DNA from: a virus
IMG/VR virus record: IMGVR_UViG_3300011982_000022
Location: 1 to 5,206 of that record
DNA length: 5,206 nucleotides
Reading direction: 5' to 3' (one strand)
Part shown: piece after piece, positions 1 through 5,206 of the stretch
How positions within the stretch are numbered: the stretch's first letter is position 1
Layout of the letters: each line of letters opens with the position of its first letter
The notes under the pieces: model-generated
What the model was told of the DNA's origin: nothing
The model's input: the letters and a program-made list of their open reading frames with translations, nothing else
Database searches by the model: none
Translations under genes and position numbers: made by a program

Positions 1-99
1 ATTCTTCCTCCAAAACTGAAATAATTTTATAATTACCTTTTACTTGCGCTTTTAATTCTCGAACCATCGGCGTAAGTATCTTGTAATTCCGTCTACCAA
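1..99. repeat. Terminal redundancy copy 1; identical to 5108-5206. Circular genome, unit length 5107 nt
   Basis: Direct comparison: window 1-99 (attcttcctccaaaactgaaataattttataattacc...gtctaccaa) is base-for-base identical to 5108-5206. Microviridae genomes are circular ssDNA, so this is most simply a linearisation/assembly overlap. Confidence 0.95.
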
Positions 100-160
100 G
101 TAAACGCAAAATACGTTTAATCAATTCTAAATCTTCAACAGGTACCATTACATAATCCAT
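1..160 (-). CDS. Hypothetical small protein, 53 aa (MDYVMVPVEDLELIKRILRLLGRRNYKILTPMVRELKAQVKGNYKIISVLEEE). Sense codons are 2-160; the stop codon TGA is formed across the circular junction (5106-5107 plus 1), i.e. 5106-5108 in the duplicated copy
   Basis: ATG at 160-158 preceded by AAGGAG (169-164) with a 6-nt spacer. Hand translation of the minus strand gives an uninterrupted 53-codon frame. Same strand as all other genes. Too short for the ORF track. The stop TGA overlaps the ATG of the next ORF (TGATG). Confidence 0.5.
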   Translation of the reverse strand, partial: MDYVMVPVEDLELIKRILRLLGRRNYKILTPMVRELKAQVKGNYKIISVLEEE

Positions 161-206
161 AAATCGCTCCTTATTCTGTCTATCTGATTTACATCCCATA
201 ATGTAT

Positions 207-235
207 AGTATGTCGCCAACTTTTTCATCTGTCAA
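207..235 (-). promoter_or_regulatory. Candidate sigma70-like promoter on the minus strand: TTGACA (235-230), 17-nt spacer, CATACT (212-207), upstream of the 53-aa ORF
   Basis: Perfect -35 hexamer TTGACA. The -10 candidate CATACT keeps the conserved A2 and T6. It lies in the 64-nt gap between the 46-aa and 53-aa ORFs. The -10 is weak, and TACTAT at a 19-nt spacing is the alternative. Confidence 0.2.
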
Positions 236-365
236 GTAATTTTTTTATAAACTTATAAAAAACTACACAAACAACAACCAAAAGCACTAACATTGCCAAC
301 GCCGAAAGCAAACCAGCAACATCCATTCTAGAATTCTGCACAACATCAACATCTCTAACACCCAT
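225..365 (-). CDS. Small single-pass membrane protein, 46 aa (MGVRDVDVVQNSRMDVAGLLSALAMLVLLVVVCVVFYKFIKKLLDR)
   Basis: ATG at 365-363 with GAGGT (372-376, overlapping the VP2 stop TGA) 6 nt upstream. The frame was verified codon by codon and stops at TGA 227-225. A 22-residue uninterrupted hydrophobic core (VAGLLSALAMLVLLVVVCVVFY) is followed by a basic tail (KFIKKLLDR). Not in the ORF track (below size cutoff). Confidence 0.55.
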   Translation of the reverse strand: MGVRDVDVVQNSRMDVAGLLSALAMLVLLVVVCVVFYKFIKKLLDR

Positions 366-374
366 TTCATTACC

Positions 375-1196
375 TCACTGCATTTGTTTAAGAATAGGAT
401 TCATCGCTTTTTCAAACCATTTATTACCAAAAAGACTATCAATCGCTTTATTTCCAAGACTTGCAAAACCTTTAGCAGCATTTCCAACTTCACCATAATT
501 ATAACGCGGGTTAATACCCGTTGCATAATACTTTTGTAAATCAACAAGCGTCATAACTCTTTCCATCTGCGCCGTAAGTATATCACTCGCAATTTTATCC
601 ATCTGCATCTTATACAGATTTCCGTGAATTTTGTTCAAGTCAACATTCGAACGGCTTAAACCTGAATTCGCACGATTTAAATCTTTCTGCGAGCCATAAA
701 ATGAAGCATCACGACGAGAAGCCTCTGCTCCAATTTCACGAGCTTGATACGCTCTCGCCAAATTATCAGCAATCTGGCTATCAACAGCCGTAGACTGCGC
801 GTCAAATAATTTTCCTTGCGATACCGCGCGAGAAGTATTCGCTTGAGCTTCCTGCGTCTCCGCTGAAAGTTTACGAATTTGAGCCAGATTCGTCAATGCC
901 GCAATCGCATTCATTGCAACATCCATCTTCGAAGCATCAACTTGAGGAGCCTGCACAGGAACCGAAACGCCGGCATTTGCAGCACTACCTGCAGCAAGCG
1001 TTTTAGATAAGCCGGCAGCTTCCAAATCGGCAACACGACGCTGCACCGCATTATCCTCACGAGCAAAAATCTGCTGTTGAATACCTTTATCATACTCCAT
1101 CTTTTGATGCTGTTGAACAGCATTATATATACTAATACCACTATTCACAGTACCAGAAATCGCACCTGCTATAATCTCTGCAATCGGAGCACCCAT
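375..1196 (-). CDS. VP2: VP2-like minor capsid / DNA pilot protein, 273 aa
   Basis: ORF track 375..1196. ATG at 1196 preceded by AAGGTGG (1209-1203) with a 6-nt spacer. Gly/Ala-rich N-terminus (MGAPIAEIIAGAISGTVNSG) followed by a long Gln/Ala/Asn-rich predicted coiled-coil region, the typical composition of microvirus H/VP2 pilot proteins. Located downstream of VP1. Confidence 0.8.
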   Translation of the reverse strand: MGAPIAEIIAGAISGTVNSGISIYNAVQQHQKMEYDKGIQQQIFAREDNAVQRRVADLEAAGLSKTLAAGSAANAGVSVPVQAPQVDASKMDVAMNAIAALTNLAQIRKLSAETQEAQANTSRAVSQGKLFDAQSTAVDSQIADNLARAYQAREIGAEASRRDASFYGSQKDLNRANSGLSRSNVDLNKIHGNLYKMQMDKIASDILTAQMERVMTLVDLQKYYATGINPRYNYGEVGNAAKGFASLGNKAIDSLFGNKWFEKAMNPILKQMQ

Positions 1197-1214
1197 CTTT
1201 TACCACCTTTCGGT

Positions 1215-1260
1215 GTCATCTAGCATTATACACAACAAGAAAGGGTTAATGCTAGATGAC
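1215..1260. promoter_or_regulatory. Hairpin H1: perfect 14-bp inverted repeat (1215-1228 gtcatctagcatta / 1247-1260 taatgctagatgac) with an 18-nt loop. The loop carries TATAAT on the minus strand (1230-1225). It ends 5 nt upstream of the VP2 SD
   Basis: Read directly: the reverse complement of 1247-1260 equals 1215-1228. It sits in the only sizeable intergenic region. Confidence 0.45.
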
Positions 1261-1274
1261 CAACTCAAATTGAA

Positions 1275-1308
1275 TTAGGGGAAAGGGGTTGCGCCCCCTT
1301 TCCCCTAA
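1275..1308 (-). terminator. Hairpin H2: perfect GC-rich 14-bp stem (1275-1288 ttaggggaaagggg / 1295-1308 cccctttcccctaa) with a 6-nt loop ttgcgc. Candidate intrinsic terminator after the VP4-VP1-scaffold transcript, or origin/packaging element
   Basis: Read directly. It lies 5 nt downstream of the scaffold-like ORF stop (1313-1315) on the mRNA strand. On the minus strand the stem is followed by UUCAAUUUG, an imperfect U-tract. Confidence 0.5.
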
Positions 1309-1312
1309 AACC

Positions 1313-1702
1313 TCATTTGCCGCTTTGACTCTCTTGAGGAACATCCGATTCACCTTTGACATCAGTGGATTGCTCCGTAGCGGCAATCGTTGCATCTTGC
1401 TGTGTCTCTATTTGTTTAGCAACATTTTGAGACATTCGCAATAATGCATCTCTTTGTGCCACTGCTGCATCCACAATGTCAAAATCTTCATCACGTGTTA
1501 AATCTTCAAGAGATTCATCAATCTCACCATCAAAATCATAAATACCAAGATTACGCACAAAATCAAGGCTTTTTCCTGCTTTCAAAAATCTATCAACCTG
1601 TTGCGCTACCGAGAGCGGACGAACAAGCTGAAAATCTGAAACTTTCTTCGCATCATAAACAGGATTGACCATCTTCCAAGTCGCTGTAGTTTGTTCTGTC
1701 AT
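1313..1702 (-). CDS. Acidic internal scaffolding-like protein (VP3-like), 129 aa from ATG 1702 (track ORF 1313..1714 uses a TTG 4 codons upstream)
   Basis: ATG at 1702-1700 preceded by GAGGTG (1712-1707). Stop TGA at 1315-1313. Strongly acidic (YDFDGEIDESLEDLTRDEDFDIVDAAV...), the size and charge expected of a gokushovirus VP3 scaffold. The TTG at 1714 overlaps the VP1 stop but is a less likely start. Confidence 0.65.
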   Translation of the reverse strand: MTEQTTATWKMVNPVYDAKKVSDFQLVRPLSVAQQVDRFLKAGKSLDFVRNLGIYDFDGEIDESLEDLTRDEDFDIVDAAVAQRDALLRMSQNVAKQIETQQDATIAATEQSTDVKGESDVPQESQSGK

Positions 1703-1710
1703 TTTACACC

Positions 1711-3498
1711 TCAATGATCAATAAGACCGGGAACGGGAATAAGCGGCATCGGACGCCACGCATCAACACGCGTCAAAATCTCGATCACCGCACAATTTTC
1801 ATCATGCACCGCGAAAATATCCTTACGAGGATAACAACGTATAAACGATGAGTTCAACTGCGGAGGATTCGCCGGATCAAATTGCCGAGCCAAATGCCAA
1901 TAACCATATTTTTTACGCATATCACCGCAAACCTGCGTTGTCTTTGCACGATATTCATCATACCGCCCTTGATAACCGAACAAACCGGCAGCACCATCAC
2001 CAAGCTGCGCAGGTGTCATAACCGACGGAGACGCAACCAATTCAGCTTCACGCACTTCCTGTTCAGATAAATTAGCAAACTCGGGAAGATAGAAATCATA
2101 CCGCGACCGTCGCAACATTTCACGATGAATACCTTGCGAACTAAACGACTGGTCCGGACGCAAAAAAGCAAGACCGATTACATAGCCATGTTCACGAGCG
2201 CTAAACTTTCCAACAAAATCACCACCAATCGAAACACCACGAGACGCTAAATTACCTTGCGGACTGTTCGAAACCGACGAAGATGTCTGAACAACCTCAT
2301 TAACCAATACAACCGATTTAGTACCTCCAATAAAATGCGGACGCTGGAGTGTATCATCATTCGGCGCTACACCAAACACAGACAAAAGACCTTCAACATA
2401 CCGAGCACCTCCACGCGCCATTCGCTCCATAAAACGTTGGGTTTGAAACATCAAACGCATATCCGATACATCCGCAAAACTTGACGATTCCAACGGAAAA
2501 CGAGAATAAGCTAAACGCTGAGGAACACCCTCAGGTTGCTTAGTAGTAGACACACGATTATTTGCTGGCAAAATATTCCCAGTATTATTAACTATAAGTT
2601 TTTGCTCAGTATCATTTATATAATTTGAATCAAAATCAGCATAATTTGAATTAAAAGTAGGAAATGGCGGATCTTCCATAAAAGCAGCATTAGCAGTACG
2701 TCTATGAAAACGTTCTAAATATAATCTTGCATTATCCACAGAAGTAGGAACCAATGTAAAACCAGGAGAACTCAAAGGCAAAGCAACCGGCTCACCACGC
2801 TGTTGCCACGGCAAAGACGATGTAAAATAATTTGAGGTCCACGTACACAAGAACAATCCCATATCATCGAGCTTTCGTTCATCTTCCAAGTTCTCATTTC
2901 GATAACATTCGTTGTAAATATAATTATACGCAATCAACGGAAAAGCAAGCGGACAATACGCCGAATAATCTGTATCCGCACCATTCTTTCCAACATCACT
3001 CAAATCTCCAAATCCAACAGACGTCGGAAATCCAAACGCATCCCAGAGCGAACCGACAGCATCAGCTTTTCCAGTTCGAGGAACAAGGGCGCCACTGACA
3101 ACTTTTGAACCAGAAATTCGAACATCATTTTTATTCGGAATCCAGAGGGGCAGGGTAGGGGTAATACCGGCTTCAGTTACTCCATCACCTTTCTTTCCGC
3201 CAAAAATAAAAGTCTCCCAACCTTTTGCAATTTCGGGAAACTTCTGCTGATACAATACACGAGAGGGAACATACCAGAAATGCGTTATAAACTTAATACC
3301 AGTCATCGGAACCGACACCATCGGTAAAAGCCGAACAAGCGCCGAAGCGCTTATTTTCAACACATCACCAGGAATAACTTCTCGGAAATATACAGGATGA
3401 ACTTCACCCATATCACAAGAATACATCTTATGATTATCCAAACGGAACCGCGACCGTTTCAAATGCCGAACAGGCACTTGTCCGAATACATCCATCAT
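1711..3498 (-). CDS. VP1: Major capsid protein VP1 (F-like jelly-roll), 595 aa
   Basis: ORF track. N-terminus RSRFRLDNHKMYSCDMGEVHPVYFREVIPGDVL matches the conserved gokushovirus VP1 start (RNRF.L...DMG.L.P...EVLPGD). AAGGAG is 4 nt upstream of the ATG. The ATG (3498-3496) overlaps the upstream ORF stop (ATGA). The size is typical of Gokushovirinae VP1. Confidence 0.93.
   Translation of the reverse strand: MMDVFGQVPVRHLKRSRFRLDNHKMYSCDMGEVHPVYFREVIPGDVLKISASALVRLLPMVSVPMTGIKFITHFWYVPSRVLYQQKFPEIAKGWETFIFGGKKGDGVTEAGITPTLPLWIPNKNDVRISGSKVVSGALVPRTGKADAVGSLWDAFGFPTSVGFGDLSDVGKNGADTDYSAYCPLAFPLIAYNYIYNECYRNENLEDERKLDDMGLFLCTWTSNYFTSSLPWQQRGEPVALPLSSPGFTLVPTSVDNARLYLERFHRRTANAAFMEDPPFPTFNSNYADFDSNYINDTEQKLIVNNTGNILPANNRVSTTKQPEGVPQRLAYSRFPLESSSFADVSDMRLMFQTQRFMERMARGGARYVEGLLSVFGVAPNDDTLQRPHFIGGTKSVVLVNEVVQTSSSVSNSPQGNLASRGVSIGGDFVGKFSAREHGYVIGLAFLRPDQSFSSQGIHREMLRRSRYDFYLPEFANLSEQEVREAELVASPSVMTPAQLGDGAAGLFGYQGRYDEYRAKTTQVCGDMRKKYGYWHLARQFDPANPPQLNSSFIRCYPRKDIFAVHDENCAVIEILTRVDAWRPMPLIPVPGLIDH
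2620..2661. repeat. Imperfect 21-nt tandem duplication inside VP1 (2620-2640 ataatttgaatcaaaatcagc / 2641-2661 ataatttgaattaaaagtagg; 17 of 21 identical), encoding the 7-aa repeat PTFNSNY/ADFDSNY
   Basis: Direct alignment of the two adjacent 21-mers. It lies in a visibly AT-rich island (about 2560-2700) of the VP1 gene. Confidence 0.6.
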
Positions 3499-3818
3499 TC
3501 AGCTCCTTGCGAAATCTGTTCCGCAGAAATAGGCTCAACCTCTGATTCAACCGAAGCATCTTCATCATACAAAACATCACACGCTTTCATTACTTCTTGA
3601 GGAATTATTTTTATATCTTCAGAAAAAACAATTCCCGTTTCTTCATCATAATCGCACATCGAAATCAACGAAAAATCATCCAACGAAATATTCTTTTGCT
3701 TTACCATAACACGATTCACCGTATCTGCAAAAATACGCTTCGCGACACCGTCATTCTTTGCATTGAACACATTTCCACACAATTCAGCAACCTTATCGTA
3801 AATACAATAGATTTTCAT
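3495..3818 (-). CDS. Hypothetical acidic protein, 107 aa, in the VP5 / protein-C position between the replication initiator and VP1
   Basis: ORF track. ATG at 3818 preceded by GAGGTG with a 5-nt spacer (GTGAGGTGTAAAAATG). It begins 2 nt after the VP4 stop, and its stop overlaps the VP1 start (ATGA at 3495-3498). The C-terminus is acidic (DEDASVESEVEPISAEQ). Confidence 0.75.
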   Translation of the reverse strand: MKIYCIYDKVAELCGNVFNAKNDGVAKRIFADTVNRVMVKQKNISLDDFSLISMCDYDEETGIVFSEDIKIIPQEVMKACDVLYDEDASVESEVEPISAEQISQGAE

Positions 3819-3820
3819 TT

Positions 3821-4690
3821 TTACACCTCACTATGTTTGTTATAAAGCGATATCTTTGAATTGACAGTCTGTTCACGCAATCGAGCATTTTTCCTACGCT
3901 CCGAAAGATAATACATGTATGCCATATCATAATCATTCTGATCAGACAGCGAAAACTCGGAACCAAACTTCGACGAAAAAATACGCGCAAAACGCAAAAA
4001 ATCTTCCTGCTCTTTATCACGCATCAATTCATTAAGCCGTTCCTTGTCCACATGGATTTTTTCTCGGTAATAACGAGGCAACGCCATCACATGCTTATCA
4101 ATTCGCACTAAACCGCTTTCCTTTAAAAAATCTGCATTCTCGATCGCAAAACCGAGACCTAAACCACGCGAACAAAGCGAGAAGGGCGGAGTAAGACCAT
4201 TTTCTTGATAATACGTCTTTCCAGACTTACCGTACAATTTTTTCTGCACATAGCCAGCAACATACCTACAACTATCATACGTTACCGATCCAATAGCTTT
4301 AGACGGCAAACACGCCCAATCTGCATACATCCACGCATTTTTAATTAACATTCTGTCAACCAAATCATTGGAATCCAGACCATATACTATTGCATGATAA
4401 TGTGGACGATGTGTTACATCACCATATTCACCAACCGCATAATATTTTATCTTGCGACCACCTAAAGACTTGCGTAATCGTTTGAAAAACAGCTGTACGT
4501 GCCTTTTACGTAGATTAGGCGGCAGATCTGCATCACGATATGTCAACGTGATAAACGCCGCACTTTTCCAATCTCTCAACTCAAACATTAAACGCATAGC
4601 CCATTGGTGAGACCGCATGATTTTACACGGCATGCAATGACCACAGGGCAGTGGAACACCGCCCTTATAAAAAGGGCGGACACAAACCAT
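3821..4690 (-). CDS. VP4: Rolling-circle replication initiation protein VP4 (HUH endonuclease, superfamily I; phiX174 gene A-like), 289 aa
   Basis: ORF track. Motif I FITLTY, motif II HYHAIVY, motif III YVAGYVQKK with two Tyr (compare phiX174 A YVAKYVNKK). N-terminal Cys cluster PCGHCMPC. The ATG at 4690 lies 2 nt after the stop of the Arg-rich peptide. Confidence 0.92.
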   Translation of the reverse strand: MVCVRPFYKGGVPLPCGHCMPCKIMRSHQWAMRLMFELRDWKSAAFITLTYRDADLPPNLRKRHVQLFFKRLRKSLGGRKIKYYAVGEYGDVTHRPHYHAIVYGLDSNDLVDRMLIKNAWMYADWACLPSKAIGSVTYDSCRYVAGYVQKKLYGKSGKTYYQENGLTPPFSLCSRGLGLGFAIENADFLKESGLVRIDKHVMALPRYYREKIHVDKERLNELMRDKEQEDFLRFARIFSSKFGSEFSLSDQNDYDMAYMYYLSERRKNARLREQTVNSKISLYNKHSEV

Positions 4691-4692
4691 AT

Positions 4693-4764
4693 TTACCTGC
4701 TGAAACCGCCTCTACGACGGCTATACTTCGTTATACGACGATGACGTCTTCGACGACGGCTCAC
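4693..4764 (-). CDS. Arginine-rich 23-aa peptide (M/V-SRRRRRHRRITKYSRRRGGFSR), GTG start. Candidate DNA-binding/packaging protein analogous to phiX174 J or gokushovirus VP8
   Basis: Hand translation of the minus strand: GTG at 4764-4762 preceded by a perfect GGAGG (4775-4771) with a 6-nt spacer, in-frame stop TAA at 4695-4693, and an upstream in-frame stop that bounds the ORF. 12 of 23 residues are Arg. Its GTG overlaps the TGA of the upstream 64-aa ORF (GTGA), and it ends 2 nt before the VP4 ATG. Not in the ORF track. Confidence 0.55.
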   Translation of the reverse strand: MSRRRRRHRRITKYSRRRGGFSR

Positions 4765-4955
4765 TTTTTACCTCCGGAAATCAATGAAACACCGGCTACC
4801 GTGCCAAAAATAGATTGCAATATTTTGACTGCAATATCAACGCCGCTATTGATGTGAGCAAGCGACTCGTTGCCCAAAACAATAGAGAGAGCGCAAAACA
4901 CAACAGCAAGAAAAAACATGAGCATTTTCACCCATTTATTCTTGAGAAATTCCAT
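4761..4955 (-). CDS. Small membrane protein, 64 aa (MEFLKNKWVKMLMFFLAVVFCALSIVLGNESLAHINSGVDIAVKILQSIFGTVAGVSLISGGKK), using the internal ATG of track ORF 4761..5024
   Basis: ATG at 4955-4953 has GGAGGT (4968-4963) with a 5-nt spacer. The track start at 5024 has no SD within range. Lys-rich N-terminus, then an 18-residue hydrophobic helix MLMFFLAVVFCALSIVLG, then a second weakly hydrophobic segment (IAVKILQSIFGTVAGVSLI). Confidence 0.6.
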   Translation of the reverse strand: MEFLKNKWVKMLMFFLAVVFCALSIVLGNESLAHINSGVDIAVKILQSIFGTVAGVSLISGGKK

Positions 4956-5106
4956 CTGAAACCTCCGTACCTTCAAAAACCTTCGCAACAACAGGCGAAC
5001 GATTTTGATTAAGCCAATCAACATAAGCCTGCGCCTTGTCTAAATCAGTGTAAGACCGACACCACGTTTGAAAGTCTTTCGACACCAACACAAAAAATAC
5101 CTTCAT
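4936..5106 (-). CDS. Hypothetical small protein, 56 aa (MKVFFVLVSKDFQTWCRSYTDLDKAQAYVDWLNQNRSPVVAKVFEGTEVSDGISQE)
   Basis: ATG at 5106-5104 preceded by a perfect GGAGG with a 7-nt spacer (ttGGAGGaagaatgATG). The ATG shares its A with the TGA stop of the 53-aa ORF (TGATG). The frame was verified by hand to TAA at 4938-4936, so its 3' end overlaps the SD and first 19 nt of the 64-aa membrane ORF in another frame. The sequence is non-repetitive and looks like a real protein. Not in the ORF track. Confidence 0.45.
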   Translation of the reverse strand: MKVFFVLVSKDFQTWCRSYTDLDKAQAYVDWLNQNRSPVVAKVFEGTEVSDGISQE

Positions 5107-5107
5107 C

Positions 5108-5206
5108 ATTCTTCCTCCAAAACTGAAATAATTTTATAATTACCTTTTACTTGCGCTTTTAATTCTCGAACCATCGGCGTAAGTATCTTGTAATTCCGTC
5201 TACCAA
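5108..5206. repeat. Terminal redundancy copy 2 (same as 1-99)
   Basis: Exact 99-nt identity with window start. It contains the 3' part of the 53-aa ORF a second time. Confidence 0.95.

Follow-up and report, generated by a model that had tools for sequence, protein, structure and literature searches.

We analyzed a 5,206-nt stretch of viral DNA (IMG/VR record IMGVR_UViG_3300011982_000022, positions 1 to 5,206; hereafter the window) with a focus on five small open reading frames (ORFs), here called genes A to E, that lie between the genes for the VP2-like pilot protein and the replication initiator VP4. On balance, we favor the reading that these are accessory genes flanking a phage attachment site (att), together with a VP8 gene, in a temperate microvirus of Treponema that integrates at dif. 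The virus is a gokushovirus-like microvirus (Microviridae) with a circular genome of 5,107 nt, and one and the same phage lineage occurs in two states, a 5.1-kb circle and a prophage of Treponema socranskii. Neither the temperate lifestyle nor the host figured in the first-pass annotation of this DNA, and both alter the reading of the accessory genes.

Close relatives of the phage came solely from exact-protein look-ups of the small proteins. With the exception of E, these proteins group into clusters, each with 1 to 18 members, that derive from human oral metagenomes, and two of the clusters include RefSeq proteins of T. socranskii. Fifteen related loci were retrieved for comparison, the relatives showing 80 to 98% DNA identity. 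One of them (L081; 2218329-2238499 of the 2.80-Mb T. socranskii contig JACBJH010000001.1) holds an integrated copy of the phage lineage at about 2.228 Mb, and further prophage loci (L082 to L086 and L172) were found on metagenomic contigs of 15 to 55 kb. The prophage is inserted between rodA, at the end of an mreBCD-pbp2-rodA operon, and an NTP-transferase gene in convergent orientation. Short contigs (L087 to L089) from human oral metagenomes, carrying VP2-A-B-C-D-VP4, represent the circular form.

In the prophages, the gene order reads attL-B-C-D-E-VP4-VP5-VP1-ORF129-VP2-A-attR, and the breakpoint falls in the 64-nt A-B gap (224-161). We are highly confident that integration takes place at a 28-bp dif-like site within this gap (attP; 218-191, minus strand), which consists of a left arm TGGCGACATAC (218-208), a central region TATACA (207-202), and a right arm TTATGGGATGT (201-191); its likeness to the host site extends to about position 183. 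The attL junction is composed of the left arm GGTAGACAGAA, the central TATACA, and the right arm TTAT(C/G)GGATGT, and the attR junction of the left arm TGGCG(A/T)CATA(C/T), the central TATACA, and the right arm TTATG(G/A)GATGT. The core is duplicated as attL and attR in L081 to L084 and in L172, with the host left arm GGTAGACAGAA in place of the phage left arm at attL, and in at least four prophage variants the integrated copy is bordered by two 28-bp sites of 11-6-11 layout, one host-type and one phage-type. Identical central regions with swapped left arms are the pattern produced by tyrosine-recombinase exchange within the central region.

All ten genes of the phage are accounted for, and none of them matches a recombinase in Pfam, PHROGs, or NCBIfam, so that the genome is integrase-free by these profiles. 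The attachment site has the inner layout of dif sites, AGAA-N6-TTATG in an 11-6-11 arrangement, and the phage and host sites resemble ACTTCCGATAATACATATTATGTCCCTT, which Kono et al. predicted to be the dif of Leptospira; their work located spirochaete dif sites by means of Firmicutes profiles. A second, distant microvirus prophage with a VP4 42% identical to that of the window was located on a 16-kb contig (L092; Ga0099364_10007188, 2961-7876), between ligA and an oxidoreductase gene. It is flanked by a 19-nt repeat with a repeat spacing of 4882 nt, and its attL, GTAGACAGAATAAACATTATGTATAGT, contains the host left arm seen above. Its layout comprises small ORFs, a VP8-like gene abutting VP4, VP5, VP1, an ORF, VP2, and then two tiny transmembrane ORFs. 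In both prophage lineages, the host genes flanking the insertion site converge upon it. Enterobacterial gokushoviruses provide the precedent, as their XerC/XerD-dependent integration at dif has been demonstrated (Kirchberger and Ochman 2020, PMC7062461). Since the phage encodes no recombinase, its site has the layout of dif, a distant lineage uses the same host left arm, and such a precedent exists, integration is probably mediated by Xer recombinases of the host acting at its chromosomal dif, judging from sequence and analogy.

Three observations weigh against this assignment. The right arm is TTATGGGATGT and not the usual TTATGTnAAnT, the GC skew over 20 kb around the prophage flanks resolved no terminus, and the empty attB site (expected to read GGTAGACAGAATATACATTATGAGATGT) was not recovered. 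The departure of the right arm from the common dif consensus and the uninformative skew would likewise suit an integration that does not depend on Xer, with either the HUH protein VP4 or an unrelated host recombinase acting on a fortuitously dif-like target. We nevertheless consider such a mechanism improbable, given that both junctions retain all of an 11-6-11 site and are identical in its central region, the signature of a tyrosine recombinase, that the same host arm is present at the site targeted in the distant lineage, and that the enterogokushovirus precedent includes xerC/xerD knock-outs. In the host flank, about 100 nt upstream of attL (around 9684 in L081 and 9850 in L083), we observed an extra copy of GGTAGACAGAAT, as GGTAGACAGAATTCG(G/A)CACATAA, followed by a small hairpin and then by attL; this copy may have been left behind by an earlier integration, or it may represent a second half-site for Xer.

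The position of attP divides the five genes. The VP2-to-VP4 interval is not a single operon, because A and B to E lie on opposite sides of attP, and in the prophages some 5 kb separates A, at the right end, from B to E, at the left. The operon-like single cassette proposed in the first-pass annotation thus did not hold up: both attP and a promoter-like element in the A-B gap, which that annotation had passed over, split A from B to E in the prophages. What speaks for one uninterrupted five-gene accessory operon, with all products novel and serving as the main store of undescribed functions, is that the five ORFs are real, preceded by Shine-Dalgarno (SD) sequences, and tightly packed, and that A, B, C, and D have no relatives beyond the lineage. 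Yet besides the separation of the two groups to opposite prophage ends, B to E are translationally chained to VP4 and form no unit with A, and E matches the known VP8 class. We therefore give this single-operon alternative little credence.

All five ORFs were confirmed on the gene (minus) strand, with the coordinates, SD sites, and overlaps that had been proposed for them. Gene A (365-225; 46 amino acids [aa]) starts 9 nt past the VP2 stop codon, has the SD sequence GAGGT 6 nt before its ATG, and is the last gene of the prophage. Gene B (160-2; 53 aa) has its ATG at position 160, with AAGGAG (172-167) 6 nt upstream; its TGA stop codon runs across the circular junction (1, 5107, 5106) and overlaps the start of C (TGATG). 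Gene C (5106-4936; 56 aa; SD GGAGG) is followed, with a 20-nt overlap, by gene D (4955-4761; 64 aa), which has GGAGGT 5 nt upstream of its start. Gene E (4764-4693; 23 aa) begins with GTG, also 5 nt downstream of a GGAGGT; it overlaps the stop codon of D (GTGA) and ends 2 nt before the ATG of VP4.

These five mini-ORFs are almost certainly conserved protein-coding genes under purifying selection, as indicated by their pattern of sequence variation. In the alignment of B to E, the annotated frames contained no stops and no frameshifts in either the circular or the prophage relatives, so the proposed genes withstood the search for scattered stops and frameshifts. The variable sites are biased toward the third codon position (positions 1:2:3, 18:8:27 in B, 7:5:10 in C, 12:4:21 in D, and 2:1:10 in E), and the pooled ratios of nonsynonymous to synonymous polymorphism (pN/pS) in the annotated frame were 0.38, 0.32, 0.25, and 0.02, respectively. 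In the other two frames of B to E, pN/pS was 0.7 to 4.4, with 4 to 34 stops. For gene A, the corresponding divergence ratio (dN/dS) was 0.12 to 0.32 within the allelic type of the window.

The consistent placement of SD sequences, which had been taken as unlikely to arise by chance, carries part of this argument. Among the 40 gene-strand ORFs with a length of 20 aa or more, 8 had an SD match of 5 nt or longer at the first start, as against none of 34 on the other strand; one of these matches is spurious, and the remaining seven correspond to six real genes, C being counted at both of its ATGs. SD-like 5-mers are nevertheless abundant on the G-rich gene strand (46 matches), and SD placement alone is therefore weaker evidence than had been assumed, suggestive rather than decisive. 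That abundance, together with the conservation at the DNA level of a host-arm motif inside B, is what could be said for the view that chance accounts for some of the mini-ORFs, or for all of them, and that overlapping cis elements such as att, a promoter, or an origin explain their conservation. We regard this as very improbable, since the third-position bias and the low pN/pS values (0.02 to 0.38) appear solely in the stop-free annotated frames, and since the start codon of E has been swapped from GTG to ATG with the frame kept. The conserved start of C is its second ATG, giving the 56-aa form. The 57-aa form of C, the 66- to 78-aa forms of B, and the 87-aa form of D were rejected, as their starts are unconserved or their frames closed in relatives. 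A 26-aa ORF across attP (228-148, minus strand) was likewise dismissed as a gene; it has no SD sequence, and its ATG is lost in L083 (ATA).

Gene E is likely to encode a short gokushovirus VP8/ORF8-type peptide, that is, an Arg-rich, putatively DNA-binding product, as suggested by its position, composition, and C-terminal block. Among its 23 residues are 14 basic ones (Arg, Lys, and His), 12 of them Arg, giving an isoelectric point (pI) of 12.0 and a net charge of about +11.6. Like ORF8 of Chp2 and p10 of phiMH2K, E is thus tiny and very basic and shares the R..Y..RGG block. It lies directly upstream of VP4, and the same position is seen in L001, L003, L004, L010, L092, L093, L164, and Chp2. 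In the nearest VP4 relatives, VP4 is abutted by Arg-rich ORFs ending in ..RGG[IV]R[LF]; Chp2 ORF8 ends in ..IMRGGIRF, and phiMH2K p10, annotated as "putative DNA binding protein; similar to phiX174 J," in ..AMRGGIRL. In an alignment of 10 sequences, the R..Y..RGG columns are invariant or nearly so, E included. E starts with GTG followed by Ser in some relatives and with ATG in others, the frame being preserved.

Two features of E count against its assignment to this class. Its terminus is RRGGFSR and not RGGIR[LF], the last three residues being different, and at 23 aa it is shorter than all the aligned VP8-like peptides except the 23-aa peptide from L164 (22 to 23 aa for E versus 23 to 44 aa in the alignment). 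E further differs from VP8/ORF8 in being translationally coupled to a membrane-protein gene. No profile family for VP8-type peptides against which E could be scored was found in Pfam or PHROGs. As a VP8-type product, E would be a basic J-type peptide that accompanies the single-stranded DNA (ssDNA) into the capsid. The first-pass annotation had stated that none of the five products has an assigned role in microviruses; this stands for A, B, C, and D but not for E, since VP8/ORF8 is a putative J-like DNA-binding protein (PMC7062461). E is absent from the 15-billion-protein collection that was searched, which means that no gene caller predicted it and that automatic annotation evidently misses this gene class.

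The predicted promoter between A and B is a sigma-70-like element, TTGACA-17-CATACT (235-207, minus strand), which matches the consensus at 10 of 12 positions and reads across attP toward B. Its -35 hexamer overlaps the last codons of A, and its -10 hexamer ends at the first base of the att central region. The TTGACA at 235 is the sole perfect -35 hexamer on the gene strand. It is conserved in every relative, including those with another A allele that ends earlier and leaves the hexamer outside the coding sequence, which argues for its conservation as a cis element. The L092 prophage is similar in this respect: its strongest promoter-like site, TTGACA-17-AATAAT preceded by a TG (11 of 12 positions), lies 50 to 80 nt before attR and points outward.

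From B through A, neighboring genes overlap or are set apart by very short spacers, the sole noncoding gaps being two (224-161 and 1312-1197), and we infer from this one main transcription unit that starts from attP. The predicted promoter would then drive a near-single polycistron from B through A. Integration would leave it at attR, pointing outward, and B-C-D-E-VP4 would end up behind host sequence; this separation would help to silence the prophage without a repressor. We offer such uncoupling of the promoter by integration as a tentative possibility, against which several points can be raised. Promoter-like sites are not enriched in the genome (18 found versus 12.6 ± 3.1 in shuffled sequence), weak promoter-like sites are present upstream of attL, and read-through from the co-oriented rodA operon into the prophage is possible.

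Proteins A and D were confirmed as the membrane proteins that the first-pass annotation had taken them to be, and they are the sole proteins of the genome with real predicted transmembrane segments. A has one strong predicted transmembrane helix (residues ∼18 to 36) and the basic C-terminal tail KFIKKLLDR. Comparison of the window (365-225) with L081 (14809-14952) and L084 (∼14895-15014) revealed two unalignable alleles among the relatives, MGVR...KKLLDR and M...IIAVIRWLNRKDRK, both of them single-pass with a basic tail. D begins with a basic stretch followed by a strong hydrophobic helix (residues 9 to 27) containing an invariant Cys21, its N terminus being signal-like, and has a second, weaker hydrophobic segment rich in Gly, Ala, and Ser (residues 45 to 59).

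Lysis by microviruses is understood only for phiX174 (PMC3394797). In the present genome, no endolysin or peptidase gene was detected with Pfam and PHROGs, and an embedded E-like overlapping lysis gene was discarded, as no conserved alternative-frame transmembrane ORF occurs inside the large genes. A is the best candidate for a single-gene lysis protein, a role which its architecture (46 aa, one transmembrane helix, and a basic tail) fits and which we put forward with reserve. Two points favor it, namely its apparent coexpression with the structural genes and its position downstream of a hairpin, a possible transcription attenuator; as the lysis protein, A would be translated following VP2, where the series of structural genes ends. 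Like phiX174 E, phage M Lys, and the annotated candidate OrfN of phiMH2K, A is very small, crosses the membrane once, and belongs to a phage that lacks an endolysin. It differs from these single-gene lysis proteins in that it shows no sequence similarity to them and is a separate gene past VP2 instead of an embedded one. Homologues of A were found only in this lineage, and nothing rose above noise in Pfam, PHROGs, or NCBIfam, with no homology to a lysis protein.

An alternative is that D is the lysis effector, either holin- or pinholin-like or an inhibitor of cell wall synthesis, with A modulating burst size or assembly like phiX174 K, or else that D is a lipoprotein blocking superinfection of lysogens. 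D has a strong N-terminal helix, a Gly/Ala/Ser-rich second segment, and an invariant Cys21 past a signal-like region; it is more conserved than A and is located at the prophage end where read-through from the rodA operon is possible, and a nearby lineage (L001) has a lipobox-bearing ORF in the same interval. As a lysis effector, however, D would be expressed with the early and replication genes upstream of VP4, which is poor timing for lysis, and a holin would find no endolysin in the genome to serve: D has the transmembrane segments of a holin but lacks an adjacent endolysin. As a lipoprotein, D does not align with the lipoprotein-like ORF of L001, and its putative lipobox, VVFC, is noncanonical. 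We consider this alternative somewhat unlikely, and keep A as the preferred lysis candidate. In the reading that we prefer, D would be a secreted or membrane-anchored, possibly lipidated protein acting in exclusion, in envelope modification, or as a holin-like partner, a role as a small secreted or membrane protein that is itself doubtful. An exhaustive HMMER search of 1.84 billion representative proteins returned only its own cluster.

Genes B and C encode proteins predicted to be soluble and would act as small cytoplasmic early proteins. B is basic (pI 9.2), and its N-terminal 27 residues are invariant except for residues 2 and 22. Its AlphaFold2 model (mean predicted local distance difference test [pLDDT] score, 61) consists of a strand (residues 2 to 7), two helices (8 to 22 and 26 to 38), and a further strand. 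The topology thus begins strand-helix-helix, like that of ribbon-helix-helix proteins, but at a mean pLDDT of only 61, and no Pfam or PDB sequence match was obtained. In L172 (2200-2330) and L174, from two samples, almost all of B is deleted between short ATAAG(A/G) repeats, the other prophage genes being intact, from which we infer that B is dispensable for prophage maintenance. C is acidic, and its AlphaFold2 model (pLDDT 86.5) shows a strand-strand-helix-strand fold that resembles many uncharacterized 50- to 60-aa proteins of tailed phages, including DUF7336 members, with E-values that are not significant. Homologues of C, at least 89% identical, were found only in this lineage.

Two exact copies of the host dif left arm (TAGACRGAAT) lie on the minus strand next to and within B: TAGACAGAAT (182-173), between attP and the SD sequence of B, and TAGACGGAAT (95-86, equivalent to 5202-5193), inside B. 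Both are conserved in relatives. With one mismatch allowed, a scan for the host arm gave four matches in the window, or three in the unit genome, versus 0.64 expected, and two of these are exact. We speculate that the copies are accessory Xer-binding sites or operators for B. It is because of these motifs beside and inside the gene that B is guessed to be a DNA-binding or Xer-modulating factor. The N-terminal strand of B is hydrophobic, unlike the DNA-reading strands of ribbon-helix-helix proteins, and the model is of low confidence, both of which speak against such a function; moreover, neither B nor C contains an XafT-like domain detectable with Pfam or NCBIfam. The roles proposed for B and for C are accordingly doubtful in each case.

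For A to D as a group, the remote-homology searches suggested by the first-pass annotation have been carried out. No relative outside the lineage was found for A, B, or C by word-index homologue search or for D by the exhaustive HMMER search. Profiles from Pfam, PHROGs, NCBIfam, and PADLOC gave only noise for these four small proteins, as did the PDB sequence search, which was done for B. That A to D yielded no homologues beyond the lineage and no informative fold detracts from the accessory-gene interpretation as a whole. The most elaborate form of that interpretation would combine lysogeny without a repressor, in which the main promoter overlaps attP, Xer-mediated integration uncouples the B-to-A polycistron, and excision couples it again, with B and/or C biasing Xer through the TAGACRGAAT motifs as a directionality or activation factor like XafT and with A as a new spirochete-specific lysis protein. 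In this full form we hold it to be unlikely.

The remaining genome is that of a small microvirus. Window positions 1 to 99 are repeated exactly at 5108-5206, and this 99-nt assembly overlap or terminal redundancy is not extra sequence, so that the unit genome is 5,107 nt and circular; the position of the junction agrees with its earlier placement. The C-terminal portion of B is present twice in the window owing to the redundancy. All recognizable genes are carried by the minus strand. In addition to A to E, they encode VP4 (4690-3821; PF23343, 3.2e-20; phrog_942, 2.6e-79), VP5/ORF5 (3818-3495; PF20577, 4.7e-14), the major capsid protein VP1 (3498-1711; Phage_F, PF02305, 1.5e-73), an acidic 129-aa protein (ORF129; ending at 1313) with no profile matches, and the VP2-like pilot protein (1196-375), which has weak PHROGs pilot matches. 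The Phage_F capsid, the ORF2/G2P-type Rep (VP4), VP5/ORF5, and a circular genome in the range of ∼4 to 6 kb place the virus among the gokushovirus-like Microviridae, and PHROGs is concordant.

The lineage is remote from described phages. The closest VP1 among ∼50,000 deposited phage records was 39.9% identical, and the closest VP4 in IMG/VR, JGI metagenomes, and GTDB species representatives was 42% identical. These VP4-based scans yielded no close relative and did not recover the T. socranskii prophage; a nucleotide search of GenBank phages gave no near match and, in distant mode, only short patches in VP1, VP2, and VP4. In L083, the prophage (10000-15000) has a GC content of ∼41 to 43% and a coding-strand GC skew of +0.23 to +0.29, the flanking Treponema DNA having ∼50% GC and a skew near zero. 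The similarity of B-to-E segments among the relatives is mosaic, a pattern suggestive of recombination between members of the lineage. One long protein is present in each of the 90% clusters of B and C. That in the B cluster (P0005; 620 aa) comes from a 7.8-kb Logan contig, and that in the C cluster (P0014; 429 aa) was set aside as an unrelated planctomycete HXXSHH protein whose clustering is spurious.

The noncoding gap between the 129-aa gene and VP2 contains two perfect 14-bp hairpins (1308-1275 and 1260-1215, minus strand; DNA fold z = -6.7). Both are kept in L081, the first with compensatory changes (TTAGGGG/CCCCTAA versus TTCGGGGG/CCCCCGAA), and a TATAAT sits in the 3' arm of the second. 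They are candidates for a transcription attenuator before VP2-A or for a complementary-strand origin.

Among known systems, the phage most resembles the enterogokushovirus prophages such as EC6098 (PMC7062461), with which it shares a small, integrase-free, gokushovirus-type genome, a basic VP8 peptide, the coexistence of circular and integrated forms, and a bacterial dif upstream with a more divergent phage dif downstream. It differs from them in its host, which belongs to the Spirochaetota and not to the Enterobacteriaceae, and in its gene order, VP4-VP5-VP1-ORF-VP2 versus VP4-VP5-VP3-VP1-VP2-VP8. Its genome is also larger, at 5.1 kb versus 4.3 to 4.7 kb, the excess being made up of four lineage-specific small genes on both sides of attP. 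Unlike the enterogokushoviruses, it further carries two extra copies of the host dif-arm motif, and its VP1 and VP4 are only ∼35 to 42% identical to anything deposited. With the integrative mobile elements exploiting Xer (IMEX) CTXphi, VGJphi, and TLCphi (PMC6744903, PMC9226527), it appears to share the reliance on host Xer at dif, as well as a dif mimic with one divergent arm. TLCphi supplies a small accessory protein that controls Xer, the activation factor XafT (PMC6744903, PMC9226527). In contrast to the IMEX, which are filamentous, the present phage is an icosahedral ssDNA phage, and its attP and host central regions are identical, so that both strand exchanges would be possible.

A further parallel is found in the termite gut "Sukshmavirinae" (Tikhe and Husseneder 2018, PMC5759034), whose reported order VP1-ORF1-VP2-VP4-ORF2 matches the VP1-ORF129-VP2-(small genes)-VP4-VP5 seen here. 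One of the VP4 relatives, a distant one (VP4 ∼37%), is a contig obtained in that work (L138; LSPZ01000325). No prophage state, att site, or host was reported for the group (PMC5759034). There are hints that "Sukshmavirinae"-type phages may infect Treponema, which is abundant in termite guts.

The literature that we searched describes very few Treponema phages and no microvirus prophage in Spirochaetota; a 2024 survey of 38 Treponema prophages makes no mention of Microviridae. New here are the host phylum, an arrangement in which attP has small genes to either side, the additional copies of the host-arm motif, and four genes without outside relatives. The search for novel functions in the region can be narrowed to A and D, the sole membrane proteins in a genome with no endolysin, and to B and C, which lie beside attP. 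The host-arm sequence common to the two prophage lineages is a candidate Treponema dif motif. Our findings thus link a deep-branching microvirus lineage to an oral Treponema species associated with periodontal disease, and integrase-free, dif-type integration, previously shown for enterobacterial gokushoviruses, now appears in two distant lineages in the Spirochaetota.

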